Under the pieces are notes generated by a model, which saw nothing but the letters and a program-made list of their open reading frames with translations, had not been told where the DNA came from and did no database searches. Below are positions 21,273-58,490 of a stretch of DNA of 64,000 nucleotides, in pieces (the first letter of the stretch is position 1; the number at the start of each line of letters is the position of its first letter). A program made the translations under genes and the position numbers. The stretch comes from an uncultured Spirochaetales bacterium (GTDB taxonomy: Bacteria; Spirochaetota; GWE2-31-10; CAYYKD01). The DNA lies in assembly GCA_964608985.1 (NCBI GenBank), contig CAZSQU010000002.1, forward strand, positions 50,849 through 114,848. The letters are read 5' to 3'.

Positions 21273-21635
21273 GTGAAAAGGGATGATGACTTCGAAAAAA
21301 GAAGAAAAGATTTAGCAAAACTCACAGAAGATCAATTGAAAGACAAATTCTGGGAACTTGCTGAAAAAATTGTCAATCCTATGATTGACCTGGCTAAGAC
21401 TCATACTACTCCTGCAGTAGAAAGATCGGTTCTTTTGAGAATGGGTTTCTCATCATTGGAGGCGAAAGATATTGTAAGCAATACAATGGATAGAGGCCTT
21501 ATGGGTAAGGGTGCAGGAAATGTTATTTATAGAGTTGCTAAGGAACTTGGTCGTGATTATCGTGAAGTTGGTAAAGAACTTGCGCAGGGGAAACACTGGG
21601 ATAAAGCAGTTCAAATTTTCAAGGGGGCTAAATAA
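21273..21635 (+). CDS. oraS: D-ornithine 4,5-aminomutase small subunit OraS
   Basis: 120 aa, the size expected for OraS (~121 aa). Immediately followed by, and overlapping, a ~730-aa B12/PLP mutase subunit gene. GGAGG RBS. Confidence 0.7.
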   Translation: MKRDDDFEKRRKDLAKLTEDQLKDKFWELAEKIVNPMIDLAKTHTTPAVERSVLLRMGFSSLEAKDIVSNTMDRGLMGKGAGNVIYRVAKELGRDYREVGKELAQGKHWDKAVQIFKGAK

Positions 21636-23827
21636 TGAAGTTAACACCTAACGAAAAAATTAATATTGATGAGATTTTAAAAGATTTAGATAAGTATAGA
21701 CCAAGAAGAAGAGGATGGACTTGGAGAAAGCCTGAAGAAAACCTAAAACAAGGTCCATTTGTTTTTAGAGAAATGTCAACACCTCTAAAAAATAGTTACG
21801 GTCTTCCATCCAGTAAGTATTTTGGGGATATTGATCCACAACCAAGAGCAAACATTACTACTGAGATTGCATCGGGAAGATTTGAAGATGATATCAGAAG
21901 AATGAGAATGGTTGCGTGGCATGGTGCTGATCATGTTATGGTAATAAGAACAGCCGGACAGTCACATTATGACGGACTTATTGAGGGAACTTCACAAGGT
22001 ATAGGTGGCATTCCTGTTACCAGAAAGCAAGTAAGAGCTCAAAGAAAAGCTATGGATCTTATTGAGGATGAAGTTGGCAGACCTATCAACTATCACTCAT
22101 ATGTGTCCGGTGCTGCCGGTCCGGATATCGCTGTAATGTTTGCAGAAGAAGGTGTAAACGGTTGCCATCAAGACCCTCAATACAATGTTCTTTATAGAAA
22201 TATTAATATGATTAGATCATTTGTTGATGCAGGTGAATCAAAAGCAATTATTGCATGGGCTGATATGGCTCAAATTGATGGTGCGCACAACGCTAATGCC
22301 ACTGCAAGACAAGCATGGAAAGTTATGCCTGAACTTATAGTTCAGCACGGCATTAATGCTATGTTCTCAAAAAAAGTTGGTATTAAACCTTCAAATATTT
22401 GTCTTTCTACTGTTCCTCCGACTGCTCCTCCGGCTCCTTCTATGAGACTTGATCTACCTTATGCTGTTGCACTTAGAGAATTGTTCCCTGAGTACAGAAT
22501 GAGAGCTCAACAGAATACAAAGTACATTGAAGCTGATATTCGTGAAGCAACAGTAACTCATACTTTGAATATGTTGATTTCAGAAATGACAAGAGCTGAT
22601 ATTCAATCAACTATTACTCCGGATGAAGGTAGAAATGTACCTTGGCATTATAATAATATTGCCGGTCTTCATACAGCTAAGCAAGCTTTTGCAGGTATGG
22701 ATGGACTTAAGGATATGCTTGAGATAAAGAGAGACGGTGAACTTGGAAAAAGAGTAAGAGAATTAAAAGAAAAAGCTGTACTTTATATGCAAGAAATACT
22801 TGATGAAGGCGGATATTTTGAGGCAGTTGAGAAAGGTTTCTTTGTAGATTCTGCTGAATACCCTGAGAGACATTCTGATGGTATTGCCAGAAAGAAAGAT
22901 GGTGGTATTGGCGCAGGGACAGTATATCCGAGAGATCCTGATTATTTTGCTCCAGTTACTGCCCACTTTGGTAATAATAAGCTGCCGGCAGGTGTTAAAA
23001 ATCCATCAGACGCTATTAGCGGATGTACATTTGAAAAACCGGAAAAGATTGTATTTATCGATGAGCTTGATCCAAATGATAATGTTAATGTCAGACTTTC
23101 TGAGAATAGAAAATATTTTTCAAAACAACATCTTAAACCGGAAGTTCAATGGGCCGGTGACGGTATAATACTTATTACTCTTATGCTTCCTTGTGATATC
23201 GATACAGCTGCAGTTGCTGCTATTGAAATTGGTAAAAAAATGGGACTTGAAGAAGTTGAAGTAATCAATAAGATGGTTATCCAAGAAGCTGAAGGCACAC
23301 TCATTGAAATGAAAGGTTCAGTTGCGTTCGAAATTGATGCGACAAAACTAAAGATTCCTCCAAGACCTGAGATTATGTCAGACGATGAGATAAGAGCAGA
23401 TATTGAGAAATCACCGATGACTATTGTTGCAGGAACTATTGGACAGGATGAGCATTCTGTAGGTTTGAGAGAGATAATAGATATTAAGCATGGTGGTATT
23501 GAGAAATATGGTATAATGCCAATATATTTAGGAACCTCGGTAGCTCCGGAAAAGATAGTAGATGCAGCTATTGAATCTAAAGCCGGTGCAATTCTATTAA
23601 GTACAATTATAAGCCATGATAATACACACTACAAGAATATGAAGAAAGTTCATGAACTTTGTGTGGAAAAAGGTATAAGAGACAAAATTATACTTATTGC
23701 CGGTGGAACACAGGTAATTGATGATATGGCAATAAAAGCAGGAGTTGATAAAGGTTTTGGTAGAGGAACTAAAGGTCAACATGTAGCTACATTTTTAGTT
23801 AAGAAAAGAAGACAGATGAAAAAATAA
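21635..23827 (+). CDS. oraE: D-ornithine 4,5-aminomutase large subunit OraE (PLP-binding TIM barrel + adenosylcobalamin-binding Rossmann domain)
   Basis: 730 aa. C-terminal B12-binding signature GQDEHSVG (DxHxxG) and GG.Q...D pattern (IAGGTQVIDDM). The 120-aa + 730-aa pair fits OraS/OraE rather than KamD/KamE (~520 + ~260 aa). Confidence 0.75.
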   Translation: MKLTPNEKINIDEILKDLDKYRPRRRGWTWRKPEENLKQGPFVFREMSTPLKNSYGLPSSKYFGDIDPQPRANITTEIASGRFEDDIRRMRMVAWHGADHVMVIRTAGQSHYDGLIEGTSQGIGGIPVTRKQVRAQRKAMDLIEDEVGRPINYHSYVSGAAGPDIAVMFAEEGVNGCHQDPQYNVLYRNINMIRSFVDAGESKAIIAWADMAQIDGAHNANATARQAWKVMPELIVQHGINAMFSKKVGIKPSNICLSTVPPTAPPAPSMRLDLPYAVALRELFPEYRMRAQQNTKYIEADIREATVTHTLNMLISEMTRADIQSTITPDEGRNVPWHYNNIAGLHTAKQAFAGMDGLKDMLEIKRDGELGKRVRELKEKAVLYMQEILDEGGYFEAVEKGFFVDSAEYPERHSDGIARKKDGGIGAGTVYPRDPDYFAPVTAHFGNNKLPAGVKNPSDAISGCTFEKPEKIVFIDELDPNDNVNVRLSENRKYFSKQHLKPEVQWAGDGIILITLMLPCDIDTAAVAAIEIGKKMGLEEVEVINKMVIQEAEGTLIEMKGSVAFEIDATKLKIPPRPEIMSDDEIRADIEKSPMTIVAGTIGQDEHSVGLREIIDIKHGGIEKYGIMPIYLGTSVAPEKIVDAAIESKAGAILLSTIISHDNTHYKNMKKVHELCVEKGIRDKIILIAGGTQVIDDMAIKAGVDKGFGRGTKGQHVATFLVKKRRQMKK

Positions 23828-23889: not shown

Positions 23890-23926
23890 AAAAAAAAGAT
23901 TCGGTTTTTATGCCGAATCTTTTTTA
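23890..23926 (-). terminator. rho-independent terminator after the giant surface-protein gene (A/T tracts on both sides; could act bidirectionally)
   Basis: AAGATTCGG-tttttatg-CCGAATCTT 9-bp stem flanked by A- and T-runs. Confidence 0.6.
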
Positions 23927-23941
23927 AATAATATGATTTTT

Positions 23942-26900
23942 TTAAAATAATGAGTTTCTTAATCCCAAGCCAAATTGCATTACAACTCCTGCATTTACCT
24001 CAGCCGGTACAAAGAATAATGCATGTTCAAAGTAAAGTGCAAATTTTCTTAGTATTCCGAATCGTTCAACTTTGAAGTAGTCAATCTGATACATAAAACC
24101 TGCAAGTAGTTTTCCATCAACGGCAGCATTATAATTAGCAATATCTGCAATTTCTCTTTGTGAAGCTCCAAATCCGCTGAACCACAGGAATGAAGCACCT
24201 ATAGAAACACTTATTGAGAAATTTTTTGCATCTTCACCGTAGAAGAATTCAAAAGGTATATCAAGAATTCTTGCATGAAGCTTTCCACCTACAACAAATC
24301 CCATAAATCTTGGATTATAACCTTCTTCAGGGTACGGGTAATAACCTGTATTTCTTATAGGGTCATCTTTAGCTATACCTGTACCCGGGTAAAGTGTTGG
24401 ATCTGTTACTGCACCAGGCATAAGGTCTTGCATATTATCCCTTGATGGTCTCCATCCAAACATCCCCTCCAAACGAACTATGTCATCAAAGAAACTCATA
24501 CCTAAACCACCTGATACGAGCATTCCACTTCCTCCAAGAAAGTCGAAATCATATTGACTCCATAGATATAATCCTTGAATAAATTGAGGTATCTTGCCAA
24601 GGTCTTTATCGAACTGTCTAAGAGCAATTTTAACCTCTTCTACTGAACCGTTATCATTTGATGACCCTCTTACCTCAACCGATCTGAAAACTCGTTCACT
24701 GTCAACAGGTGTATCAATAACTATTTCCGGCCGTTCTCTATCTATGTATATTTTAAAGAACTTAATTGTTTCAATGCCTGATGCTGTACGAGCTTTCATT
24801 TGAAGCATATGAACTCCATCTGAAAGATTTTGAGTTTGTACTCTAACTCTCCAAATATTATTAAATACGGTTGCAGTTTCAAATGTACTTCCGTTATCGA
24901 GACTTAAAAGGAGTTCTACCACCCTGTTATCATAGCGATAGCGATTTAATTCAACTATAAGTTCCCCTTTGCTTACTTCAATATCTTCAACAGCAGGTAT
25001 TAATTCAGGTGTTCTTCTGTATCTATTTTGAAACTCAATGTGTTTTCTTTCCTGAATAATTCTCTTTACAACAAATTCAATATCTTTCTCAAAAAACTCT
25101 GCAGTACCCTCCATCCAAGGTCTATGTTCCATTGCTCTCCCATTTAAGTGTGTAGTAACATTTACTATAGGACCGCATCTGTCATAAGAAAAAGTACGGA
25201 ACTCCTGTGCTGACAACTGTTCATTTCCTGCTATTGGATTTGTCAATGCCCTAACGGTTATTCTTTGGTCACCTATAGGTAGTTCAACAGCCGGAATACT
25301 AACAGACCAGTTAGTTGTTCCTATTGCCTTGTATTCTTTTCCTGCTATATTAACTATGACCGATTCTATACCTGCTGAATGGCGTGATGTACCAAAGAAT
25401 TCTATCATATCACCGGTTAGCCTTTGATTTGGCTGTGGTTGGTCAATTTCAAGAACCGGGAGATCTGCTCTCGGGTTAATTTTAAAGTTAATTGAGCTTT
25501 CTGAAACATTTCCCGCTAAATCTGTAACTCTTGCTACAAGATTATATCTTTTGTCGATATCTGCGTCATTCCATCGTGTAGTATCAATTTTGTATGACCA
25601 GGCTTCAAGTGAATCAATAGGCATTGAAACATATCCATTCGCATCTGCACCCGGAAGTGGAGCAATTACCCACACCTCAACATCTTGATTGTTTATTCTC
25701 TTTATCGTTGGGGTTACAAGAAGAATTTCAACAGATTTTAATCCGATATTGTCCCGGCTTCTACCAACGATGTTGATCTCTTTCCCAACTTCAGATCCAT
25801 CTCTCGGGTAAAGGACCTCTATCTCAGGTGCAGTGTTATCTATATTAAACAGTGAGAATGAAAAAGATTCTGAACCGGCGTTGTCTTTTGCTCTGATAAA
25901 TACCCTTAATTCACCATCAGGTAATGTTGCAGAATTAAAACGATAATTCCAGCTTTCTGAACCATTTGCGTCAAAATATGACCATCCGTTATTTATACTT
26001 ATTTGTACTTTTTGAATTTCATTGGGGTCTGACGAATTACCAATAATTACTGTCTCACCTTTAAGATATTGGTTAGTCTCAGGGCTTCTTACATGTATTG
26101 TCGGATTTTCAAGGTCAATATGGAAATCAGTTGATTTTATATCACTTGCTGTACCATATATATCAAAAGCTTGTACTTCAAGAATATATTTACCGGACAT
26201 TTCACCATTTGTCTGAATCCTTTCATTCCAGTTCATTCCTTGTGTAACTTCGATTCTTTTCCATTCGCCGTTTATACCATTAGATTTGTTTAATCTGTAT
26301 TGAACATAATTAATTCCGTCTGCATCCGTTGCAAGACCGCCAAGTTCAACTACATTAGTAAATCTTTGACCGGATAATGACGGGCTGTTAATATAAACCT
26401 GCGGTATATCTGACATCGGGTCTATTGTAATTGCTTTCTGTATTATAGTTTTATTACCGGCTGCATCTATTGCAAAAATCTCAATATTATGATTAATTAA
26501 TTCTGTGGATCTTAGATTAATCCCTTGAAGATCTCTTAAATTATATATAAAATTGTATGGTCGTTTTCCGTTAGCTACAACCTGCTGTCCATTAAACATA
26601 TATACTATTTCAGAAATACTGTTCGTGTCAACTGCACTTCCTTTTATATTAACACTGCCGGTAACCTTTTCTTCTTCTGTATTTTCATTGGAAGCTGTGT
26701 TAAATTGAAATACAGTTCTATCAGCTGTAATCTCAGGTACGGTTTTATCGATTATATAACTGTAAGGTATATATGAGATTTTACCAGAACTGTCTGTAGC
26801 TATTAAAACAATTCTTTTGAAACCGTCTTCAAGAGAAGCGACTGAAACTGGTATTTTAAATATTTTATCATTAGGATTAACTGTTATGCTGTTATCAGTT

Positions 26901-29900
26901 ATAAATTGACTTAACTGCTGATTTTGTGTTCTTTTCAGTGCATCTATCATAGGAACCTGATACCTTTGAATGGAGGTTGAAGGTTCTAGTGCTACCGGTG
27001 TTTTAGTAAGAATGCCCGCTTTAATAAGCAATGTCGAAGAATTAAACAATTGATCCGAGGTTAACTGTGCAAGATTAAGGTTGTTGTTTCTATCTTTTAT
27101 ATAGATTCTAAATAACTCATCTTTTTCCGCTTGGTTAAGATTTGGTGCATAATTCTGTTCAAAATCGCTCATAGTAATCGTTGCAGGTATATTCTTTAGA
27201 TCAACGAACTGAAGTTCAATTGTATCTGAGTCATCAAAAACAGACCCGTATATTGTGAAGTCATTATTTAAAGATATATTAGCAGGTGGCCATATAACCT
27301 TTGATACTGGAATCTGATAATCATTATTAACGGTAGCTGTAAGGATCGAAGTTGGTTGATTAAGCGTAATATCAATAATTGAAGAATTGAAACTTCCGCT
27401 GCCTATTGCGATTCTATTTTCTTGTGTAATATTAACAAAATAAATTCCATTGGAATTTTCTGTCTTAATAAAAGGTATTGTTTTATTGTTTATTTTAAAA
27501 CCGTATGTGCTGTTATAATTATCAGAAAGAAACAAGAAACATGCTTGACTATTCTGATCGATATTGAATGTTGAGCCGCTAAATAAGATCGGGTTAGGAC
27601 TATAAACTGTATTGTCATTCTTTACAACATTAAAAGTAAGGGTATATTCAGGTTCAGGACTATTAACAAAATTTACCCTGAATGTTGATCTGACCGGATT
27701 GCCAGCCATATCAATTGCATCTATTACTATGTTGTAATCAATATTTTTGTTATCGCTTGTTTTAGTCTTTAATGTGAAAACCGCTTCCATATCTTCAATA
27801 ACAGTATTAACAGTCTCAGCTTCTGCAGAATTTGGTGTTATAGTAAGTTTTATTTCTTTCATTAAGAGATTTTCTTCTATTGTAACTATTTCATTCTGTA
27901 TCATACCTGTTCTTGGTTGTATAACCGGAGCTGTTATTCTTGGCGGAGTTTTGTCGATAACAATCGGAACTGAAATTGATGAGGTTTTTCCTGCAGAATC
28001 TACTGCATTTAATTTTATAACTATAATACCGTCATTGACATTGATTCTTGATTGAACAAAATCAATTTTTATATTATCGCAAGTATATCTCAGACTGTCT
28101 GTTGTTCTGAATCGCAATTGGGTATCTCTGATTATTTCTGTACCACTAATATCTGAAATACTGTAGGATGCTGATCTTAACTCACCGGCTTTATTTATGT
28201 TAACAGGCAGATCTATTGATTTTCCAAATGATTTTCCTGCCCATACAGCGATAGTCTGCATATCAAATACCGGATATTGTGTGTCTATGTAGAAAATTGT
28301 TTTGACCGGATTTCCTTTAGTGTCATTAATATCAACCGGTACAAGTTCAGCTGTATATTTTCCATCAGGAAATATGGTTTTGTCTCTCAGATCTACCATA
28401 GCCGAAAAGTTATATTTCGAAGGAATTGTATATGTATAAACAGGTTGATTAGCAGCATTAAATATTGTAAGCAGTGTTTCTTTCGAACCATTATTATCAA
28501 CTATTGTCCCGAATACCGGAAGTACGCCGGAAACAATCTTATTATTTGAAAAGCTATTAAGAGTAAGTACCGGTTTATCAATATTTTGATCAATATTCAA
28601 TCTAATGGTTTTGGTTATGATATTTCCTGAAATATCAAATGCGCTTGCTTCCAGGTTATAACTTCCTGATCTGAGCCTTCTTGTGTCAATAGTAAAAGTC
28701 CAGAAAGGGAAACTTTCGGTTGATTCGATTGTAACAAGAGCAGGATCTATCCCTTTTATTTCAAATTTAACATCAGTAAGATCAACATTGTCCCGTGCCA
28801 TTACAAACGAACTGAAAATCCCGGATTCTGTCGCTCCATCCACCGGAAAAATAATTTCTAATTCGGGAGGTTGATGGTCTATAGTTACTGAAATTGGAAA
28901 ATACCCTTGTGATCCGGCAATATCAGTAGCTCTAACCCATATTGTCTGTTTGCCGTCAACCATAACATCAGAACTAAAAGAATATTTAAATGCAGTTTCT
29001 ACTTTTTCTCTATAAGTGAAGTTTTCGATTGTATTGAAAGTAAGACGGTTGTCTATTGAATATTCTATTAATCGTATTTTGTTACTATCACTTGCAGTTC
29101 CCTCAAGAAGAATATTTCCTGATATAATATCACCGGATTTTAATGAACTTACTGTTATTGATGGGGATCGTCTGTCAAGTATAAATGGTATCTCAGTATA
29201 ATCTTTAGTTAAACCATAAACATTTTTCCATTGGCTTCCTAATCCGTTATTATCATAAGCCCTGAGTTTTATCATGTGGTTTCCATCGTTCATATTTGTT
29301 GTAGTAAGATTATAACTCCAGAAATTTGTTCCGCTGCAGATAAATTTTTCTTCTTCTCCGGATTCATTAATAATTATAACTTCAACTCTGTCAATAGCAT
29401 CATTATCTAAAGCTGTTCCAACAATTTCAAGATTACCTGTTACCCTTGCATTAGGAAGCGGATTAATAACTGTTAGTGTCGGTATATCTGATTTCGGATC
29501 GATATTAATATTAACAGCTGTTTCAAAACTTGTATTTCTCATGTTATCAATTGCTGTTAATGCAATATGCCAAGGACCGGTTTTGCCTGCCAGATCAAAT
29601 TGATGATTCCAGTTAAGTGTGCCTTCTACGGTTATCCTGTCATCTTGAAGATTCTTCAGATCATTTTCTTTGGATTGCATTAAAATTCTTTTTTCAATTA
29701 TATTTTGTCTGATTTCAACCCTTCTTAATAGAAGCGCGGATCTTTCAGCTCTGACGGTTGCCATTTCTTCTTCAGGTAAGGGATTTCTTGGCCCTGCAAA
29801 AAGCAATCTGTCGGTTGTAACAGTTATCTCTTTTTCGGTGTTAGAAAGTTCTCTCTCAAATGCTCTTATCTGATTTGTGATGTCTCTTATCTCATTTCTG

Positions 29901-30067
29901 ATGACCTGTTCCGGCGTTAATTCTCTTTGTGTGAAAAGTTGTGCAGGTGTTGTTTCAGTAGTATCATCAGTTAGTTCTGTTACAGAACTGACATTTGAAT
30001 CCTGAGCGTAGAAAAGATTTGCTGAAATTAATAACATCAACAAAAACAAAGTAATTTTTTTAAACAT
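23942..30067 (-). CDS. giant (~2041 aa) secreted cell-surface protein: signal peptide, N-terminal coiled coil, more than 12 tandem Ig-like domains with recurring A.D.AGN motif, distinct ~300-aa C-terminal domain ending in Phe
   Basis: ATG at 30067 (MFKKITLFLLMLLISANLFYAQD) preferred over the listed 30100: GGAG RBS 5 nt upstream and a clean signal peptide. Repeating ~100-aa units contain VRATDIAGS / LEASAFDISGN / LNAVDSAGK / IDAIDMAGNP / IFAIDAAGNK / VQAFDIYGT / IRAKDNAGSES / VARVTDLAGNVS, typical of bacterial Ig-like domains. The C-terminal region is G/F/Y-rich and ends ...FGLGLRNSLF. Confidence 0.6.
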   Translation of the reverse strand: MFKKITLFLLMLLISANLFYAQDSNVSSVTELTDDTTETTPAQLFTQRELTPEQVIRNEIRDITNQIRAFERELSNTEKEITVTTDRLLFAGPRNPLPEEEMATVRAERSALLLRRVEIRQNIIEKRILMQSKENDLKNLQDDRITVEGTLNWNHQFDLAGKTGPWHIALTAIDNMRNTSFETAVNINIDPKSDIPTLTVINPLPNARVTGNLEIVGTALDNDAIDRVEVIIINESGEEEKFICSGTNFWSYNLTTTNMNDGNHMIKLRAYDNNGLGSQWKNVYGLTKDYTEIPFILDRRSPSITVSSLKSGDIISGNILLEGTASDSNKIRLIEYSIDNRLTFNTIENFTYREKVETAFKYSFSSDVMVDGKQTIWVRATDIAGSQGYFPISVTIDHQPPELEIIFPVDGATESGIFSSFVMARDNVDLTDVKFEIKGIDPALVTIESTESFPFWTFTIDTRRLRSGSYNLEASAFDISGNIITKTIRLNIDQNIDKPVLTLNSFSNNKIVSGVLPVFGTIVDNNGSKETLLTIFNAANQPVYTYTIPSKYNFSAMVDLRDKTIFPDGKYTAELVPVDINDTKGNPVKTIFYIDTQYPVFDMQTIAVWAGKSFGKSIDLPVNINKAGELRSASYSISDISGTEIIRDTQLRFRTTDSLRYTCDNIKIDFVQSRINVNDGIIVIKLNAVDSAGKTSSISVPIVIDKTPPRITAPVIQPRTGMIQNEIVTIEENLLMKEIKLTITPNSAEAETVNTVIEDMEAVFTLKTKTSDNKNIDYNIVIDAIDMAGNPVRSTFRVNFVNSPEPEYTLTFNVVKNDNTVYSPNPILFSGSTFNIDQNSQACFLFLSDNYNSTYGFKINNKTIPFIKTENSNGIYFVNITQENRIAIGSGSFNSSIIDITLNQPTSILTATVNNDYQIPVSKVIWPPANISLNNDFTIYGSVFDDSDTIELQFVDLKNIPATITMSDFEQNYAPNLNQAEKDELFRIYIKDRNNNLNLAQLTSDQLFNSSTLLIKAGILTKTPVALEPSTSIQRYQVPMIDALKRTQNQQLSQFITDNSITVNPNDKIFKIPVSVASLEDGFKRIVLIATDSSGKISYIPYSYIIDKTVPEITADRTVFQFNTASNENTEEEKVTGSVNIKGSAVDTNSISEIVYMFNGQQVVANGKRPYNFIYNLRDLQGINLRSTELINHNIEIFAIDAAGNKTIIQKAITIDPMSDIPQVYINSPSLSGQRFTNVVELGGLATDADGINYVQYRLNKSNGINGEWKRIEVTQGMNWNERIQTNGEMSGKYILEVQAFDIYGTASDIKSTDFHIDLENPTIHVRSPETNQYLKGETVIIGNSSDPNEIQKVQISINNGWSYFDANGSESWNYRFNSATLPDGELRVFIRAKDNAGSESFSFSLFNIDNTAPEIEVLYPRDGSEVGKEINIVGRSRDNIGLKSVEILLVTPTIKRINNQDVEVWVIAPLPGADANGYVSMPIDSLEAWSYKIDTTRWNDADIDKRYNLVARVTDLAGNVSESSINFKINPRADLPVLEIDQPQPNQRLTGDMIEFFGTSRHSAGIESVIVNIAGKEYKAIGTTNWSVSIPAVELPIGDQRITVRALTNPIAGNEQLSAQEFRTFSYDRCGPIVNVTTHLNGRAMEHRPWMEGTAEFFEKDIEFVVKRIIQERKHIEFQNRYRRTPELIPAVEDIEVSKGELIVELNRYRYDNRVVELLLSLDNGSTFETATVFNNIWRVRVQTQNLSDGVHMLQMKARTASGIETIKFFKIYIDRERPEIVIDTPVDSERVFRSVEVRGSSNDNGSVEEVKIALRQFDKDLGKIPQFIQGLYLWSQYDFDFLGGSGMLVSGGLGMSFFDDIVRLEGMFGWRPSRDNMQDLMPGAVTDPTLYPGTGIAKDDPIRNTGYYPYPEEGYNPRFMGFVVGGKLHARILDIPFEFFYGEDAKNFSISVSIGASFLWFSGFGASQREIADIANYNAAVDGKLLAGFMYQIDYFKVERFGILRKFALYFEHALFFVPAEVNAGVVMQFGLGLRNSLF

Positions 30068-30091
30068 AAAATCTCCTGAAAAAATCAAAAT

Positions 30092-30120
30092 ATTAAACAA
30101 TCATAAATTATTGTCGTCAA
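30092..30120 (-). promoter_or_regulatory. putative sigma70 promoter of the giant surface-protein gene (TTGACG - 17 nt - TTTAAT on the minus strand)
   Basis: Reverse complement of 30092-30120 gives TTGACGacaataatttatgattgTTTAAT, ~25 nt upstream of the ATG at 30067. Confidence 0.35.
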
Positions 30121-30151
30121 TACAAGTAAAAAAAACAATCAAAAAAATATT

Positions 30152-30180
30152 TAGTGTTATTTTTTATTAAAATAACACTA
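30152..30180 (-). terminator. rho-independent terminator after the SelB-wing gene (12-bp perfect hairpin)
   Basis: TAGTGTTATTTT-ttat-TAAAATAACACTA is a perfect inverted repeat. On the minus strand it is followed by a T-rich run. This separates the giant gene from the upstream transcript. Confidence 0.55.
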
Positions 30181-30187
30181 AGGCCGG

Positions 30188-30787
30188 TTATAGATTTACA
30201 ATATTTATAAATTCTCGCGTGCCGTTGGGATCAATTCTTCTTGTATATCCCATTCTATCAAAATACTCTACCAACAAAACTGTACTTTCATGTTTAAGTC
30301 CGGTTTTATTCTTGAGTGTGTTAATTGTAATTATATTATCATTTTTCAAAAAATTCAAATAATTTTCAAAAAGATATTTATTTATATAACAATCTTTTTT
30401 AATTTTTAGTATATATTTATCATATTGGAGTTTAACCAGCAGATTATTCAATCCGTATTCATCTAAGCTAATGATTGCCCTTTTAATGGGTACCAAATTT
30501 ATCTTTTTTAACAGGAGAAAATTTTTATTTAAAAATTTTATACATTTGTTTTCAAGCTTATTGTAAGTAGTTTTGTAGTTTTTGGGTAAATAAAATCCAC
30601 GGTAGAATTCAATATCACCGGAATCAACAAGGTTTTCAAGTTTTTTTATTGTGAATTTTATATCTTTTTTAAACTTGATGTGAATTTTTTTGTGGATATC
30701 TTCATCGATAAGTCCAAATGAGTGTAATCCATTAATCTTATTGATTGTATAAATAATACTTTCTTCTATACTGTTCAAAAAAACCAT
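30188..30787 (-). CDS. stand-alone protein made of SelB C-terminal-type winged-helix domains (no GTPase domain)
   Basis: C-terminal TGLKHESTVLLVEYFDRMGYTRRI resembles the SelB WH4 SECIS-binding helix pattern (..R..AI.LLEYLDR.G.TRR). An upstream segment IKRAIISLDEYGLNNLLVKL looks like a second WH unit. Only 199 aa. Confidence 0.4.
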   Translation of the reverse strand: MVFLNSIEESIIYTINKINGLHSFGLIDEDIHKKIHIKFKKDIKFTIKKLENLVDSGDIEFYRGFYLPKNYKTTYNKLENKCIKFLNKNFLLLKKINLVPIKRAIISLDEYGLNNLLVKLQYDKYILKIKKDCYINKYLFENYLNFLKNDNIITINTLKNKTGLKHESTVLLVEYFDRMGYTRRIDPNGTREFINIVNL

Positions 30788-37642: not shown

Positions 37643-38797
37643 ATGAAAAGAATATCGGCAATATTTTTTATGAGTTTTGCAGTGTTTTTATATAGTGCCA
37701 ATGTCAATGTAGATGAGTTAAGTATTATTGCTGACGGGGCATACAGTAACTCAAGCGGTTTGTTTGAAATGAATACTTTTATGAAATTTACAACCTCATT
37801 TGACGGAGGTTTTAAATTCGCCGCAAATGCCGCTTTCGAAGCAAATATCAGAGAAGTTGAAAGAAACTACCTTATTAATGATAATATCTATGACAAAGTT
37901 TTTTTAATATTTAAACACGCTGAAGTGACCGCAAATAATCTTGCTGAGGAACATCTTAATCTTTCTTTCTGGACCGGTGTACACGGATATCTAGGTGCAG
38001 GTAATATTTACCGCGGTTATTTATATTATCCGGAAAATCAAAGTGATGATTTCGCGGGTTTTTACAGACTTAGAGGTACCGGTATAAGTGCTGAAATGAA
38101 ATTTTGGCGCGATCAATTCAGATCGAAATTTCATTTTTATCAAAATACAAATTTCATCTCAGCAAATAACCAACTTGCTTTTCATTACTTTTCATTTGAT
38201 AATGAAACCGGTTTATACATGAATTTCAGTGATCAGTTTTCTGAAAACATATTAATTAATCTTGTGTTTTTTGGCGGTATAACTTTTCCTGTGGACAGCA
38301 GTGTTAGAGGAAAAGTCGGTATGTCATTTAAGGTAGGTAATGAACACCTTGATTTTTTTGTGTCAGTCGGAATGCCTAAATTGGACATAAATATAGCATC
38401 AACTACTTTTGACAGTCTATATTTGGTTGCAGAATTAAATTTTAGGATAGGTTATACTCAGAATACTCTTACATTCTTAACAAGGCCAACATATTTTAAT
38501 GAGGCTGAAACAGGTGCGGTTAATGATTTTGATATAAATTATAAGTTTCGTGTAGTAGTACCGGATTTCTGGTTAAGGGGTGGCTTTAATCTGAACTTTA
38601 AATTTTCTCAGACTGACCCCCAAGATTTTTGGAGACTCTATTTGACACCTTATATTGATATGGAGTTTTCAGGTGTTGTTTATACTGTCAGTATGCATTA
38701 TGATTTTTCTCGGATATATGCTGCTAATCTTACAGGTAATCCGATGCTTAGTTTAGAAGGTCTTGGTGTCGTTATCGGTGTATCATCTAAATTTTAA
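37643..38797 (+). CDS. hypothetical outer-membrane beta-barrel protein
   Basis: Signal peptide MKRISAIFFMSFAVFLYSANV. Alternating amphipathic beta-strand pattern. C-terminal ...VIGVSSKF has the alternating-hydrophobic plus terminal-Phe OMP beta-signal. Confidence 0.5.
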   Translation: MKRISAIFFMSFAVFLYSANVNVDELSIIADGAYSNSSGLFEMNTFMKFTTSFDGGFKFAANAAFEANIREVERNYLINDNIYDKVFLIFKHAEVTANNLAEEHLNLSFWTGVHGYLGAGNIYRGYLYYPENQSDDFAGFYRLRGTGISAEMKFWRDQFRSKFHFYQNTNFISANNQLAFHYFSFDNETGLYMNFSDQFSENILINLVFFGGITFPVDSSVRGKVGMSFKVGNEHLDFFVSVGMPKLDINIASTTFDSLYLVAELNFRIGYTQNTLTFLTRPTYFNEAETGAVNDFDINYKFRVVVPDFWLRGGFNLNFKFSQTDPQDFWRLYLTPYIDMEFSGVVYTVSMHYDFSRIYAANLTGNPMLSLEGLGVVIGVSSKF

Positions 38798-42760: not shown

Positions 42761-44605
42761 ATGAGACTATTAAAAATATTACCGTTGATGTTGATGTTGA
42801 TGAGTGTTTCAGTTTTTTATGCTCAGGATAATACGGTTGATCTGCAGAGTACAATTCAAATAGCACAGCTTAGGGAAGAGATAAGCACTATCAGAAGTGA
42901 AGTTGAGCAGTTAAAAGCAAAAAGCACTCTTTTTGATTTTACGATAGGCGGGAGTGCTAAGGTTATCTGGGGATTGAACCTTTGGGCAAGAGGTGGTGAT
43001 TTAGATACCGTTCCTGCGATCAATACTCTGACTCCTGTCACACATGGTTTTGATTTTGTTAATACTCTATTGTTTAATATGACACTTGGTAAGGACATTA
43101 TTGCAAGAAGCGGTGAAAAGAGCTATAACGGTACACAGATAGATATTGAGCTCAAAATTAATTCGATGGGTATCTCAGATATGAGACCGGACGGCAGCTG
43201 GTATGTTGTTGACGGATTTGATGACCAAGGAAATCCTGTTAAGATATATCTTCCAAAGTTTGAATCAGGGGCTTCTAATGTTTATTTTGGAAATTTTCAA
43301 TTAGTTCTTGATAAGGCAAGGGTTAGTAATATTTTTGATATGGGCATTTTTATTAATTACAGTGATGTTATGGAAGTACACAAATACTATGGTGTTAACA
43401 GTATGGTAGAGGTGTTAAAGCTAAATCATGATTATTTTAATCACGGTTTTGCCAATGGCGGTTCTTTATATTATGCTTTTGATGATTATGATTATGATCC
43501 GATTGCCGAAGAATCCGAGGCAGTTGATATATGGTCAAAAAGTGTATTGTATTTGGATCCGGCTGATCCTATCAGAAGCAGAGCTAATCAAAGACCGCAC
43601 GGTGTATCATTCGGATACGATAGTGCTAATATGTTAAGTAATTATTTCAGGTTCTATATTGAGGGCGGAATAAGTTCAAAAGATGCTTTTGATCCGAAGT
43701 TCTTTTCAGATCTTTATTTAGATTATGGATTTTTTGTAAGAACTGATCTTTTGATTAAAGACAATAAAGCGTTTACATTTCATCCTAAAATCGCTCTTGC
43801 ATTTGCATTTCAGTCAGATTCGGTTGAGGATCTCGATATAAATGCCGGCAAGGTTTTTTCATCATCAATATCAATCCCTTTAACATATCAATTTAATCAA
43901 AAAGATCACATAAATGTAGAATTTGACTGGAGTATAAATTATCACATAGACAGATCGGCTGTTACCACTATGATTGCTTTTTATCCGGAATTAACTCTGT
44001 TCAATCAGTCATTTTTTGTAAAGATTCCTTTTATGTACTCATTTAAGAATGGTACTGACGGAATAATCAGGGTTGGACATGAGGATGTAAAATGGATAGA
44101 TCAAACATACGATAACCATTATTTTAATCTTGAATTCATTATTGGATTTGATTCTCAAAAATTGTTCGGAGATATGTTCAGGTACAAATTTACAAACAAG
44201 ATGTTTTATACACATCTAAAATCTGATACAAGAAACATTAATTTTGCCAATCAGGTGCCTCCGGGTGAGCATTATTTTTATGAAATAATTGAGAACATGT
44301 TTTCATTTTATGAACTTGGCGATTCAACTTGGTCTATTAAAGAATTGAGTTTGTATTTGAACTTTGGTCTTGGATATACAAATAATGCAAGGATTATAAG
44401 GGATGGTTTCAGCATAGATCAGTATTTGAGATGGGGTGAGAATCTTGCATTATGTGTAGAAACAGGTTTATCGATTGTATTGATGGATAATCTTTCGTTT
44501 GGTTTTTCTGCCGAGTCACCCAAAATACTTGTAACTGCGATAAATCCGATTGGGGAACAAGCTTCGTTTGGTTTATTTAAGATATGGAGTGAGATTAAGT
44601 TTTAG
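42761..44605 (+). CDS. hypothetical outer-membrane beta-barrel protein
   Basis: Signal peptide MRLLKILPLMLMLMSVSVFYAQD (same FYAQD cleavage context as the giant surface protein). N-terminal coiled-coil segment. C-terminal ...FGLFKIWSEIKF beta-signal ending in Phe. Confidence 0.5.
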   Translation: MRLLKILPLMLMLMSVSVFYAQDNTVDLQSTIQIAQLREEISTIRSEVEQLKAKSTLFDFTIGGSAKVIWGLNLWARGGDLDTVPAINTLTPVTHGFDFVNTLLFNMTLGKDIIARSGEKSYNGTQIDIELKINSMGISDMRPDGSWYVVDGFDDQGNPVKIYLPKFESGASNVYFGNFQLVLDKARVSNIFDMGIFINYSDVMEVHKYYGVNSMVEVLKLNHDYFNHGFANGGSLYYAFDDYDYDPIAEESEAVDIWSKSVLYLDPADPIRSRANQRPHGVSFGYDSANMLSNYFRFYIEGGISSKDAFDPKFFSDLYLDYGFFVRTDLLIKDNKAFTFHPKIALAFAFQSDSVEDLDINAGKVFSSSISIPLTYQFNQKDHINVEFDWSINYHIDRSAVTTMIAFYPELTLFNQSFFVKIPFMYSFKNGTDGIIRVGHEDVKWIDQTYDNHYFNLEFIIGFDSQKLFGDMFRYKFTNKMFYTHLKSDTRNINFANQVPPGEHYFYEIIENMFSFYELGDSTWSIKELSLYLNFGLGYTNNARIIRDGFSIDQYLRWGENLALCVETGLSIVLMDNLSFGFSAESPKILVTAINPIGEQASFGLFKIWSEIKF

Positions 44606-56024: not shown

Positions 56025-58490
56025 ATGGGCAAATACCTAATTGTGGGTGGAGTAGCAGGTGGGGCAACAACAGCGGCTCGTCTTAGAAGGATTGATGAAA
56101 AATCGGAAATAATAATGTTTGAGCGCGGAGATTATATATCTTATGCGAATTGCGGGCTTCCATATTATGTTGGGGGGACAATAAAAGAAAGAGATTCTTT
56201 ATTTGTTATGACACCGGAGAAATTTTATGCCCGTCTTGCGGTTGATGTAAGGATTAAAAGTGAGGTAACGGCAATTGACAGAAAGAATAAAGAGGTTACA
56301 GTAAAAGATCTAAAAACCGGAAAAGAATACAAGGAGAGATATGACAAGCTTGTTTTATCCCCCGGTGCAGAACCCGTAAGACCCCCGATACCGGGTATAG
56401 AGAGTAATTTAATATTTACCATGAGAAGTGTGCCGGATACAGATGCGATTAAGAACTTTGTTGACACTAATAAACCCCAAAGAGCAGTTATAATTGGAGC
56501 TGGTTTCATTGGAATCGAAATGGCAGAGAACCTTCATCATAGAGGAATCAAGGTTACAATTATTGAAGCACTTGATCAGATGATGGGGGTTCTTGATTAT
56601 GAGATGGCTTCCGAGATACATCAACATCTAAAGATAAAAGGGGTTGAATTTTATCTCGGAGACGGCGTGAAGAATTTCAATCAACTGCCTAAAGGTCTTA
56701 CTGTTGTACTTAACAGCGGTAAAACAATTTCAAGCGATATGGTAATACTTTCAATTGGCGTTAGACCGGAAACTAAACTTGCAAAAGAAGCGGGTATAGA
56801 TTGTAACGAAAGGGGTTTTATCCATGTAGATAAGTATATGCAGACTAATGATCCGGATATTTATGCATTAGGTGATGCTGTCTGTTTCACAAGTCCGATT
56901 ACCGGTAAGATTGTTAACACTTTACTTGCGGGACCGGCAAATAAACAGGGGCGTATTCTTGCTGATAATATTGTTTTCGGCAATAAGAGGGAGTATAAAG
57001 GGGCAATAGCTACGGCTGTTGCGAAGGTATTTGATCTTACTGTTGCTTCAACCGGCATGCCCGAGAAAATTATTCAAAAAGAAAACATCCCGTATTTAAC
57101 AAATATAATACACGCCGGAAGTCATGCCGGTTACTATCCCGGTGCACTGCCAATGAGTTTAAAGCTTGTTTTCTCGCCGGTTGACGGAAGAATTTACGGT
57201 GCTCAAGCAGTTGGTTATGAAGGTGTAGATAAGCGGATTGATGTTATAGCCGCTATAATCGGAAAAAACGGAACTATTTATGATCTACAGGAGGTTGAAC
57301 ACTGTTATGCGCCGCCATTCTCCAGTGCAAAAGATCCGGTCAATCAGGCAGGGTTTGCCGCTGAGAATATTCTAAGGGGGCTTGTTAAGGTAATTACCTG
57401 GAAAGAGTTATTTGAGTCGGATAGGTCTAAACTGCTGTTGCTTGATGTAAGAACACCAGATGAAGTGGAGATAAACAGGGTAAATGGTGCTTTAACTATT
57501 CCGGTTGATGATATCCGTGCAAGGTTAAAAGAGATTCCAAAAGATAAAAAAATTGTTGTTTTTTGTGCAGTGGGGTTAAGAGGGTACTTTGCGTGTAGAA
57601 TTCTTATGCAGTCAGGTTATACTGATGTTTATAATCTTTCGGGTGGTTATAAGATATACGAGCTTGCAACAGGAAAACAGTCAAATGAGGATGTGTTTAC
57701 CCACGATGAATATGATATTGAAGGTGTTGTTTATGAAAACAGGGAGAAAATTGATATGAGTAAAACAGTTGAAGTAGATGCTTGCGGACTTCAATGTCCC
57801 GGTCCAATATTAAGATTGAAACAAGAAGTTGATAAGTTAAGGGTAGGCGAGATTCTTGAAATAAAAGCAAGTGATCCCGGGTTTATGAAAGATAGTCAAT
57901 CGTGGTGTAATGTGACAGGAAATAAACTCATTTCTATCAATAGTGATAAAGGTGTTATTACTGCTGTTATTCAAAAAGGTGAGTCTTTACCGTCTTGTAA
58001 GGTGTCAGATAACGGCGGCAGTGAAAACAAAACAATAATTGTTTTTAGTAATGATTTTGATAAAGTGCTTGCGGCTTTTGTAATAGCTAACGGTGCGGCG
58101 AGTATGGGTAAGAAAGTTACGATGTTTTTTACATTCTGGGGGCTTGTAGTTCTGAAGAAAAAAAAGAGCGGACGGGTAAAAAAAGATTTTATGGGCAAGA
58201 TGTTCGGTATGATGCTGCCGAAATATTCAAAGAAATTAACATTGTCAAAGATGAATATGGGCGGTATGGGGACAGTGATGATGAGGGGTAGAATGAAGGC
58301 AAAGCAGGTCGATTCACTTGAGACTATGATTAATCAAGCTTTGGAAAATGGTGTTAAATTTATAGCTTGCCAGATGTCTATGGATGTTATGGGGGTTAAA
58401 AAAGAGGAGTTGATGGATCAAGTTGAGATAGGCGGTGTGGCATCTTATCTTGAAGAAGCGGATAAGTCGAGTCATAATTTGTTTATATAG
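56025..58490 (+). CDS. multidomain CoA-disulfide reductase / persulfide reductase-like flavoprotein fused to rhodanese, TusA-like and DsrE/DsrF-like domains
   Basis: FAD/NAD(P) pyridine-nucleotide disulfide oxidoreductase with single active Cys (YANCGLPYY) and NAD site VIIGAGFIGIE. Rhodanese Cys loop FCAVGLRG. TusA CGLQCPGP. DsrE-like KTIIVFSNDFDKVLAAFVIANGAASMGKKVTMFFTFWGL. Confidence 0.75.
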   Translation: MGKYLIVGGVAGGATTAARLRRIDEKSEIIMFERGDYISYANCGLPYYVGGTIKERDSLFVMTPEKFYARLAVDVRIKSEVTAIDRKNKEVTVKDLKTGKEYKERYDKLVLSPGAEPVRPPIPGIESNLIFTMRSVPDTDAIKNFVDTNKPQRAVIIGAGFIGIEMAENLHHRGIKVTIIEALDQMMGVLDYEMASEIHQHLKIKGVEFYLGDGVKNFNQLPKGLTVVLNSGKTISSDMVILSIGVRPETKLAKEAGIDCNERGFIHVDKYMQTNDPDIYALGDAVCFTSPITGKIVNTLLAGPANKQGRILADNIVFGNKREYKGAIATAVAKVFDLTVASTGMPEKIIQKENIPYLTNIIHAGSHAGYYPGALPMSLKLVFSPVDGRIYGAQAVGYEGVDKRIDVIAAIIGKNGTIYDLQEVEHCYAPPFSSAKDPVNQAGFAAENILRGLVKVITWKELFESDRSKLLLLDVRTPDEVEINRVNGALTIPVDDIRARLKEIPKDKKIVVFCAVGLRGYFACRILMQSGYTDVYNLSGGYKIYELATGKQSNEDVFTHDEYDIEGVVYENREKIDMSKTVEVDACGLQCPGPILRLKQEVDKLRVGEILEIKASDPGFMKDSQSWCNVTGNKLISINSDKGVITAVIQKGESLPSCKVSDNGGSENKTIIVFSNDFDKVLAAFVIANGAASMGKKVTMFFTFWGLVVLKKKKSGRVKKDFMGKMFGMMLPKYSKKLTLSKMNMGGMGTVMMRGRMKAKQVDSLETMINQALENGVKFIACQMSMDVMGVKKEELMDQVEIGGVASYLEEADKSSHNLFI

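Follow-up and report, generated by a model that had tools for sequence, protein, structure and literature searches.

The outer membrane of spirochaetes is loosely attached and must accommodate the rotating periplasmic flagella. Proteins of the OmpM, SlpA and Thermotoga Omp-alpha type combine, in this order, a signal peptide, an extended periplasmic stalk and a C-terminal anchor in the outer membrane. Spirochaetes have been reported to lack OmpM, with OmpA as the only outer membrane tethering system known from them (bioRxiv 10.1101/2021.05.31.446380); this report leaves room for lineage-specific tethering solutions. We analyzed a stretch of 64,000 nucleotides, hereafter termed the window, from an uncultured Spirochaetales bacterium (GenBank assembly GCA_964608985.1, contig CAZSQU010000002.1, positions 50,849 to 114,848). 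The open reading frame (ORF) 23942..30100 on the minus strand, the largest in the ORF list of the window, encodes a giant protein whose parts are arranged in the same order as those of the OmpM-type tethers, with which it also shares a short coiled-coil-like segment. In contrast to these tethers, its stalk is built from immunoglobulin (Ig)-like modules instead of a coiled coil, its barrel possesses eight strands rather than being porin-sized, and SLH domains are missing. By analogy, the window protein may work like a stalked tether of the OmpM/Omp-alpha type. Our reading of the whole, which we put forward tentatively, is that of a giant Ig-array protein of the Spirochaetota that is held by an eight-stranded barrel in the outer membrane, faces the periplasm, and carries complementary half-modules at the two ends of its array.

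The coding gene (30067..23942; all features of this gene lie on the minus strand) specifies 2041 aa when translated from the ATG at position 30067. This codon is likely the start codon, as an AGGAG Shine-Dalgarno sequence lies 8 nt 5' of it (30065..30077), and both the ORF and the protein length given in an initial annotation of this DNA are correct with this start. About 15 complete, diverged Ig-like modules, delineated with Pfam, NCBIfam and a hidden Markov model (HMM) derived from the protein itself, occupy aa 196-1779 (24731..29482). In the Pfam scan, Big_7 matched in nine stretches (E 7e-53), Big_13 in four and Big_3_3 in two, and the NCBIfam model of the Ca_tandemer repeat was matched with 59 bits (cutoff, 50 bits). 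Iterative searches with the self-derived HMM resolved 12 clear modules of ~80-100 aa, two weak ones and two half-modules; the stretches aa 801-1040 and 1631-1700 were less recognizable as modules. The domain scan supports the Ig-like identity of the more than a dozen repeats that had been noticed by inspection. The motif (V/I)xAxDxAGN, described then as recurrent, occurs only twice in its exact form, while the relaxed version xxAxDxxG[NKST] is found nine times.

Mean identity between the modules is 21%, and Tandem Repeats Finder (TRF) detected no repeats at the DNA level in the gene besides one 21-bp duplication; a recent repeat expansion or phase variation was consequently rejected. We compared the protein with its 53%-identical ortholog, encoded at the locus L001 of another spirochaete. 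The two arrays are collinear, almost without insertions or deletions, so that this comparison revealed no variation in repeat number. Array identity to the ortholog ranges from 41 to 68%, and the neighboring gene products UvrD and FapA show 59 and 48%, respectively. The array thus seems to diverge about as much as cytoplasmic neighbors do and does not appear to be fast-evolving. These features suggest modules that are ancient and fixed in number, which fits a structural element of the envelope; together with the occurrence of the family in free-living spirochaetes (see below), they favor a structural element whose length is fixed over a variable host adhesin. Neither catalytic, lectin nor wall-binding domains were found in the window protein or in the four diverse relatives that we scanned.

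The array is bounded on both sides by half a module. When 80 full-length members were searched with a module profile of the family (80 columns), the first match started immediately behind the signal peptide (at residue 28.5 in the median) and covered columns ~40-80 only; the last match adjoined the barrel and covered columns 1 to ~46 only, in 80/80 members. Both halves were present in 72 of the 80 proteins, and most exceptions belong to the subfamily of the window protein itself, in which a helical insert of ~120 aa precedes the N-side half. Inner modules, by comparison, span columns 1-80, and only 27 and 19 of 1019 were partial in the corresponding ways. In the window protein, both halves were detected. 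The N-side half (strands C'-E-F-G, aa ~141-195; 29483..29647) matched the N-half profile at aa 141-186 with E 3.6e-7; the C-side half (strands A-B-C, aa 1780-1824; 24596..24730), which runs into the barrel linker, matched columns 1-40 of the family HMM at aa 1780-1819. The breakpoint falls into the C-C' loop, with a GGK/GDK motif retained on both sides, and conservation within the array is highest at its two ends. While the Ig modules proposed by the initial annotation are confirmed by our data, the split module at the ends of the array had been overlooked.

Strands A-B-C of an Ig sandwich are interleaved with strands C'-E-F-G. Neither half should therefore fold alone, and complementation is the natural reading of the split. 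For a chimera test, we joined the C-side half of each protein to its own N-side half and scored the products with an HMM trained on complete inner modules only. In 99% of the cases, the chimeras matched over the full length (80/80 columns), and the reversed order failed. Their median score of 58.7 bits compares with 56.5 bits for real modules and ~28 bits for either half alone; the chimera of the window protein reached 37.2 bits over columns 1-77. In a mean-field direct coupling analysis (DCA) with randomly held-out proteins, native combinations of halves beat shuffled ones. When the held-out set was an entire positional class, the score of the terminal halves exceeded the additive expectation by 14, as against +8 and +23 for the controls. 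The DCA outcome weakly favors a pairing of the halves. On the strength of the sequence comparisons as a whole, we consider it probable that the N-side and C-side halves pair.

This arrangement is reminiscent of the donor strands of chaperone-usher and type V pili and of the 'velcro' closure of propellers, in which an incomplete fold is completed from elsewhere or the ends of an array form one unit. It differs from the donor-strand systems in that a half-domain of three to four strands, rather than a single strand, would be supplied, and in that no chaperone or usher genes accompany it. Literature searches yielded no described precedent for the closure of a linear Ig array.

The C-terminal domain (aa 1825-2041; 23945..24595), which ends with ...GLGLRNSLF, was modeled with AlphaFold2 from a family alignment of 45 sequences (predicted local distance difference test score, 80.7; predicted TM-score, 0.75). 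The model shows eight strands of 10-16 residues that form a β-barrel; they are contiguous between aa 1830 and 2039, and the array joins before strand 1. With the better model, Foldseek retrieved outer membrane proteins (OMPs) only among its top matches. We regard it as very probable that this domain is an eight-stranded outer membrane barrel of the OmpA/OmpX/NspA type, and this structure prediction supports the earlier idea of a C-terminal membrane anchor. The Gly/Phe/Tyr-rich region on which that idea was based indeed stands out in composition (F 11%, G 12%, Y 5.5%) and terminates in ...NSLF, but it comprises ~217 aa (1825-2041) and not ~300. Its likeness to the N-terminal domain of OmpA, OmpX/Ail, NspA, the N-terminal part of OprF and OmpW is one of the predicted fold, an eight-stranded antiparallel barrel; no homology to these small OMPs was detectable in the sequence. 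In the Pfam and NCBIfam scans, aa 1825-2041 were matched by none of the curated models (OmpA_membrane, OMP_b-brl, OmpW, Ail_Lom and others) at E<=1, and the family profile retrieved nothing from the PDB sequences at E<=10. OmpA starts with its barrel and continues with a periplasmic domain, whereas the barrel of the window protein forms the C-terminal end of 2041 aa.

Strand residues in the aligned members point alternately to two faces, of which one is hydrophobic and the other carries the invariant residues K50, K114, Q179, E/D181, E199, R222 and Gly. This pattern resembles a lumen that is polar, like that of OmpA, surrounded by an exterior that faces lipid. The last residue is aromatic in nearly all members, almost always Phe, within the sequence G-x-R-x-x-Phi-F. 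That the last residues of the window protein are not those of a canonical alternating β-signal had been noticed before, and is now seen to be a trait of the family. Ahead of strand 1 lies a conserved linker (LRxFDKxxxKIPxF; 24581..24622; family consensus LRxGDKxxYxVPxF), which comprises 14 aa in 45/45 aligned members and shows K6, P12 and F14 as (nearly) invariant positions. Conservation within the domain is highest in the motif PFxxFFGxDW, located in the turn between strands 4 and 5 (aa 1938-1949; ~24221-24256), where the window protein reads PFEFFYGEDA. This turn lies on the rim from which the Ig array emanates, measures 11 residues in almost every member, and could serve as a docking surface or a plug. 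In comparison with small OMP barrels, the barrel of the window protein possesses two unusually long, conserved turns on its near side.

In an eight-stranded meander barrel, both termini are located on the same rim, and there is no channel for a polypeptide. Canonical OMPs combine constant periplasmic turns with variable external loops. Among the 45 diverse members of the alignment, the connections on the rim that holds the N and C termini have fixed lengths of 4, 11 and 7 aa. On the opposite rim, loops 3-4 and 5-6 vary from 6 to 49 and from 8 to 37 aa, respectively, and are the least conserved in sequence. By canonical OMP rules, constant turns on the side of the array and variable loops opposite to it would most likely place the array in the periplasm, an orientation that we consider moderately probable for the modeled barrel. 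The N-terminal parts of BamA, LptD and the treponemal Tpr proteins also face the periplasm. The organization as a giant adhesin or surface-layer (S-layer)-like protein that the initial annotation had envisaged is not supported in that form: the barrel is too small for a passenger, the turns on the array side are constant, the modules are ancient and not fast-evolving, and the protein fails the tested defining features of the classes considered below.

We assessed these classes individually, and the autotransporter, type I secretion system (T1SS), Lig, SLH and Hop classes were all rejected on the features tested. With the autotransporters of types Va and Ve, the window protein has Sec export, an outer membrane barrel and a long repetitive passenger in common, and the passengers of intimin and invasin are Ig-like; a C-terminal barrel combined with an Ig passenger is found in neither class. 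A type Va autotransporter was rejected on account of 8 instead of 12 strands, the lack of a PF03797 match, and the absence, in the predicted structure, of both a helix before strand 1 and a helical or extended linker in the barrel. The inverse autotransporters of type Ve (intimin/invasin) were dismissed because the barrel is C-terminal and eight-stranded and neither the intimin barrel nor LysM was matched. Ig adhesins secreted by T1SS (SiiE, LapA, MpIBP) resemble the window protein in repeat type (Ca_tandemer, Big_13) and overall size. The T1SS RTX/BIg adhesins were nevertheless excluded, since a Sec signal is present and HemolysinCabind/RTX matches, a C-terminal T1SS signal and linked genes for an ABC transporter, a membrane fusion protein and an outer membrane factor are not. 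A leptospiral Lig lipoprotein is incompatible with the missing lipobox Cys (the window protein has no Cys ahead of residue 244) and with repeats of the Big_7/Big_13/Big_3_3 rather than the Big_2 type. An interrupted barrel as in the Hop proteins of Helicobacter does not agree with eight contiguous strands at aa 1830-2039 and a mature N terminus that is helical instead of providing the first strand. An SLH-anchored S-layer protein or OmpM tether was rejected as well, given that no SLH, LysM, OmpA_C or PG_binding match was obtained for the window protein and four diverse relatives. The paper on T-Mac (TDE0362) of Treponema denticola describes a different protein, one that combines Ig and protease parts. 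No description of the architecture reported here was found in our literature searches.

To delineate the family, a word-indexed search for relatives of the C-terminal domain was performed, which yielded five. An exhaustive HMMER search with their alignment returned 240 clusters at E<=1e-3; cluster P0007, which is identical to the window protein, matched the profile with E 3.9e-94 but is itself part of the query alignment. In full-length members (~1300-2600 aa), the domain is always located at the extreme C terminus, and four diverse members that were scanned share the plan of a signal peptide, wall-to-wall Ig modules and a barrel. All named clusters derive from Spirochaetota, among them gut and rumen Treponema, Spirochaeta lutea, Marispirochaeta associata and uncultured Spirochaetales known from metagenome-assembled genomes. 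A scan of genomes with a six-sequence alignment recovered 69 loci, 68 of which belong to Spirochaetota and one of which is labeled only 'bacterium'; the non-flagellated Sphaerochaeta as well as Borrelia, Leptospira, Brachyspira, T. pallidum and T. denticola were absent among these 69 loci, the scan being pattern-based and not exhaustive. In a second search of an annotated database, the family profile retrieved mostly short fragments with little taxonomic information. Since the barrel lacks a Pfam or NCBIfam model, existing annotations describe members only as 'Ig-like domain-containing protein'. We therefore appear to deal with an undescribed family of envelope proteins that is, so far, found in Spirochaetota only.

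The genes of this family usually occur singly per genome, and the window contains one copy of the giant-Ig gene. Two loci (L036, 2201-10537; L047, 824-9318) carry tandem pairs, in which two members of ~1380-1420 aa take the place of the usual single gene for ~2000 aa; if half-modules pair, these proteins could cross-complement each other. Synteny with the window was found only at L001, where the closest relative is encoded; identity of the two proteins is 53% over the whole length and 72% across the barrel. In some homologs, including this closest relative (L001, 10001-10738), the chain continues past the usual terminal aromatic residue, with endings such as ...TSLYNLSKTEAPGGAKRK, ...RNSIVTNKDK and ...RNAFWAQEKKQ, which are odd for a β-signal. 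In other genomes, genes for Sir2 and an ABC-F ATPase are recurrent neighbors, which we judged to be housekeeping genes and uninformative, and most clusters of 'conserved neighbors' proved to be shadow ORFs on the antisense strand of the big gene. No linked genes for a transporter, an usher or a BamA-like partner were found.

We envisage that Sec would export the protein via its cleavable signal peptide, that the last ~217 residues would fold into the OmpA/OmpX-like barrel of eight strands, and that the β-barrel assembly machinery (BAM) would integrate the barrel into the outer membrane, guided by an insertion signal that includes the C-terminal Phe. As the N terminus of the barrel is located on the rim of short, length-invariant turns, the array of ~1800 residues would most likely come to lie at the periplasmic face of the outer membrane. 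There, the halves would most likely complement each other, either within one chain, which would form a loop with a contour of ~60-70 nm, or between chains, which would yield head-to-tail oligomers. We infer that the likely role of the protein is structural, as a scaffold or tether of fixed length that is anchored in the outer membrane of the spirochaete envelope, and not that of a host adhesin. A more specific picture, in which the ends of the periplasm-facing array snap together so that closed hoops or head-to-tail cables form beneath the outer membrane, is possible but less probable. We estimate that such hoops would have a contour of ~55-90 nm and a diameter of ~17-29 nm, assuming ~4 nm per module. 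It is speculation that hoops or cables might tether the loose outer membrane, or that they might corral the flagella in the periplasm; the diameter of a hoop would be of the same order as that of a sheathed flagellar filament, but any link between the protein and the flagella is likewise speculative.

Several observations weigh against this interpretation. Proteins in which Ig modules of the Big_7/Big_13/Ca_tandemer type form long tandem arrays are overwhelmingly extracellular adhesins. A rod of roughly 60-70 nm would exceed the width of the periplasm and could be accommodated only if it followed the membrane or folded back on itself. The argument on orientation applies canonical OMP rules to a predicted barrel, and two of the turns taken to be periplasmic, those of 11 and 7 aa, exceed the usual length. 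No module for binding to peptidoglycan or the inner membrane was detected in the array of the window protein or the four relatives; the proposed tether is therefore one without a known second attachment point. The C-terminal G-x-R-x-x-Phi-F sequence does not fit the canonical alternating β-signal, and several homologs (L001, L006-L011, L013) possess 5-15 extra residues past the terminal aromatic one. With respect to the pairing of the halves, native pairs equaled same-class shuffles in the DCA when a whole positional class was held out, under controls of low power, and the Pfam match of the window chimera remained below threshold (Big_7, 21.3 bits; cutoff, 24.1 bits).

These points bear on three other interpretations. 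It is possible, but not probable, that the barrel-anchored array projects outward as an adhesin, a spacer or an S-layer-like coat, perhaps with the assistance of BAM and with the split module as an external clasp or joint. The adhesin-type repeats, the great length of the protein and the failure to find a periplasmic binding module would all suit such a surface fibril, as would the fact that many carriers are gut or rumen Treponema, for which adhesion matters; moreover, the Hop adhesins of Helicobacter are small barrels that bear surface domains. In contrast to the Hop proteins, however, the eight strands in the window protein are contiguous and C-terminal, and the array is positioned ahead of strand 1 rather than in an external loop. 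An eight-stranded barrel with a conserved polar lumen, furthermore, offers no channel for a linker, the length-invariant turns are found on the array side with the variable loops opposite, and transporter or usher genes are not linked. The array shows neither variation in repeat number nor accelerated divergence, and the carriers include free-living spirochaetes from marine and lake habitats (Spirochaeta, Marispirochaeta). A soluble eight-stranded barrel of the avidin, YceI or lipocalin type, or a cleavable sorting domain, with release of the protein into the periplasm or the medium, is quite improbable. The non-canonical β-signal with its tails in some homologs and the lack of a sequence match to any OMP family are compatible with it; the content of F (11%) and G (12%) is, in contrast, typical of OMPs, strands of 10-16 residues can span a membrane, and invariant charged or polar residues opposite a hydrophobic face fit a polar lumen and a lipid-facing exterior.

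The remaining alternative leaves the barrel in place and concerns the halves alone. We regard it as rather unlikely that they are no partners but leftovers of an out-of-phase tandem duplication, each of which would be disordered or completed by another element, the C-side half by the 11-residue turn of the barrel together with the linker and the N-side half by the neighboring module, so that the protein forms a linear rod on its barrel. The conserved, aromatic-rich turns on the near side of the barrel could provide a docking surface of this kind; the class-held-out DCA and the helical insert of ~120 aa that the subfamily of the window protein tolerates before its N-side half point in the same direction. 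Mere leftovers, on the other hand, would hardly be kept together in 72 of 80 divergent members with precisely matching breakpoints (columns 1-46 and 40-80), nor would they show some of the highest conservation in the array. The halves add up to exactly one module in which no column is lacking or present twice, and an unpaired Ig half should be unstable.

If the halves do pair, donor-strand or velcro complementation would extend to half-domains and to the closure or polymerization of long Ig arrays. The hoops or cables, if they exist, would represent the first velcro-closed Ig array and a spirochaete-specific answer to the tethering of the outer membrane. As a conserved giant protein that is usually encoded in single copy and restricted to one phylum, the window protein is a concrete candidate for a scaffold of the envelope. 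The combination of a signal peptide, Ig repeats and a C-terminal anchor does not automatically indicate a surface adhesin, and the size of the barrel matters for this distinction. The barrel itself constitutes a domain family that awaits a Pfam or NCBIfam model.

At its N terminus, the window protein carries a predicted Sec-type signal peptide (aa 1-22; 30002..30067), which we read by eye as MFKKITLFLLMLLISANLFYA↓QD. Its n-region (MFKK), the hydrophobic core of 15 residues and the predicted cleavage site FYA↓QD bear out the signal peptide that had been proposed, and the cleavage context FYAQD is, as had been stated, common to this protein and the ORF starting at 42761. The mature N terminus consists of a low-complexity, helical segment. 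A heptad-patterned helical insert (aa 45-150; 29618..29935) is particular to the subfamily of the window protein and missing from members of the main family. Its heptad contrast is strong at aa 53-91 (0.82) and moderate at aa 99-148 (0.42), and the sequence GPRNPLP interrupts the two parts. The coiled coil of the initial annotation thus exists as a heptad-patterned segment, but it is short and made up of two helices only. The 21-bp tandem duplication found by TRF (29863-29903; two copies, 90% match; aa ~55-69) codes for two consecutive heptads of this segment (IRNEIRD / ITNQIRA).

The gene appears to be transcribed on its own. A plausible sigma-70-like promoter (TTGACG-N17-TTTAAT; 30092..30120), read from the sequence at the site proposed in the initial annotation, agrees with the consensus in 10 of 12 positions, but it has no A at -11 and was missed by a consensus scan. 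Downstream of the gene, RNA folding predicts an intrinsic terminator (23895..23922) with a 13-bp stem followed by U8 (dG -14.7 kcal/mol, z -6.1), and none of 200 shuffled sequences was equally stable. On the other side, an AT-rich hairpin with a U-run (30151..30181; dG -12.1 kcal/mol, z -3.6) is likely the terminator of the upstream gene 30188-30787 and likely separates the big gene transcriptionally from it. These data support both the flanking terminators and the monocistronic organization that had been claimed for the gene.

The window otherwise harbors housekeeping genes of an anaerobe, including those for ornithine aminomutase, NrdD, GuaA, Mfd and GlgB; near neighbors of the giant-Ig gene encode ornithine aminomutase, a winged helix-turn-helix protein and FapA. 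Directly upstream and on the same strand as the big gene, 30188-30787 (minus strand) encodes a 199-aa protein with a weak match to SelB-type winged-helix domains; this arrangement is kept at L001, where the corresponding protein is 39% identical. The genes for ornithine 4,5-aminomutase OraS/OraE (21273-23827, plus strand) are convergent with the big gene. In comparison with the L001 orthologs, OraE and OraS are 94 and 88% identical, respectively, in contrast to 39-61% for the other neighbors, which suggests that these enzymes are either unusually conserved or were recently exchanged between the two spirochaetes.

Three further ORFs of the window deserve mention. The 614-aa product of 42761-44605 (plus strand) has no Pfam match; its signal peptide, which ends with FYAQD, is followed by a heptad-like helical stretch (LQSTIQIAQLREEISTIRSEVEQLKAK), and its C terminus (...FGLFKIWSEIKF) represents a canonical alternating β-signal. 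It looks like an uncharacterized OMP with an N-terminal coiled-coil stalk, its parts being arranged in an OmpM-like order. The ORF 37643-38797 (plus strand) codes for 384 aa with a signal peptide, no Pfam match and the C-terminal sequence ...GVVIGVSSKF, and is probably the second of the two 'small OMPs' of the initial annotation. An 821-aa fusion protein encoded at 56025-58490 (plus strand) combines pyridine-nucleotide disulfide oxidoreductase, rhodanese, TusA and DsrE-like domains and, judged by this domain composition, appears to be a multi-domain sulfur-transfer protein.

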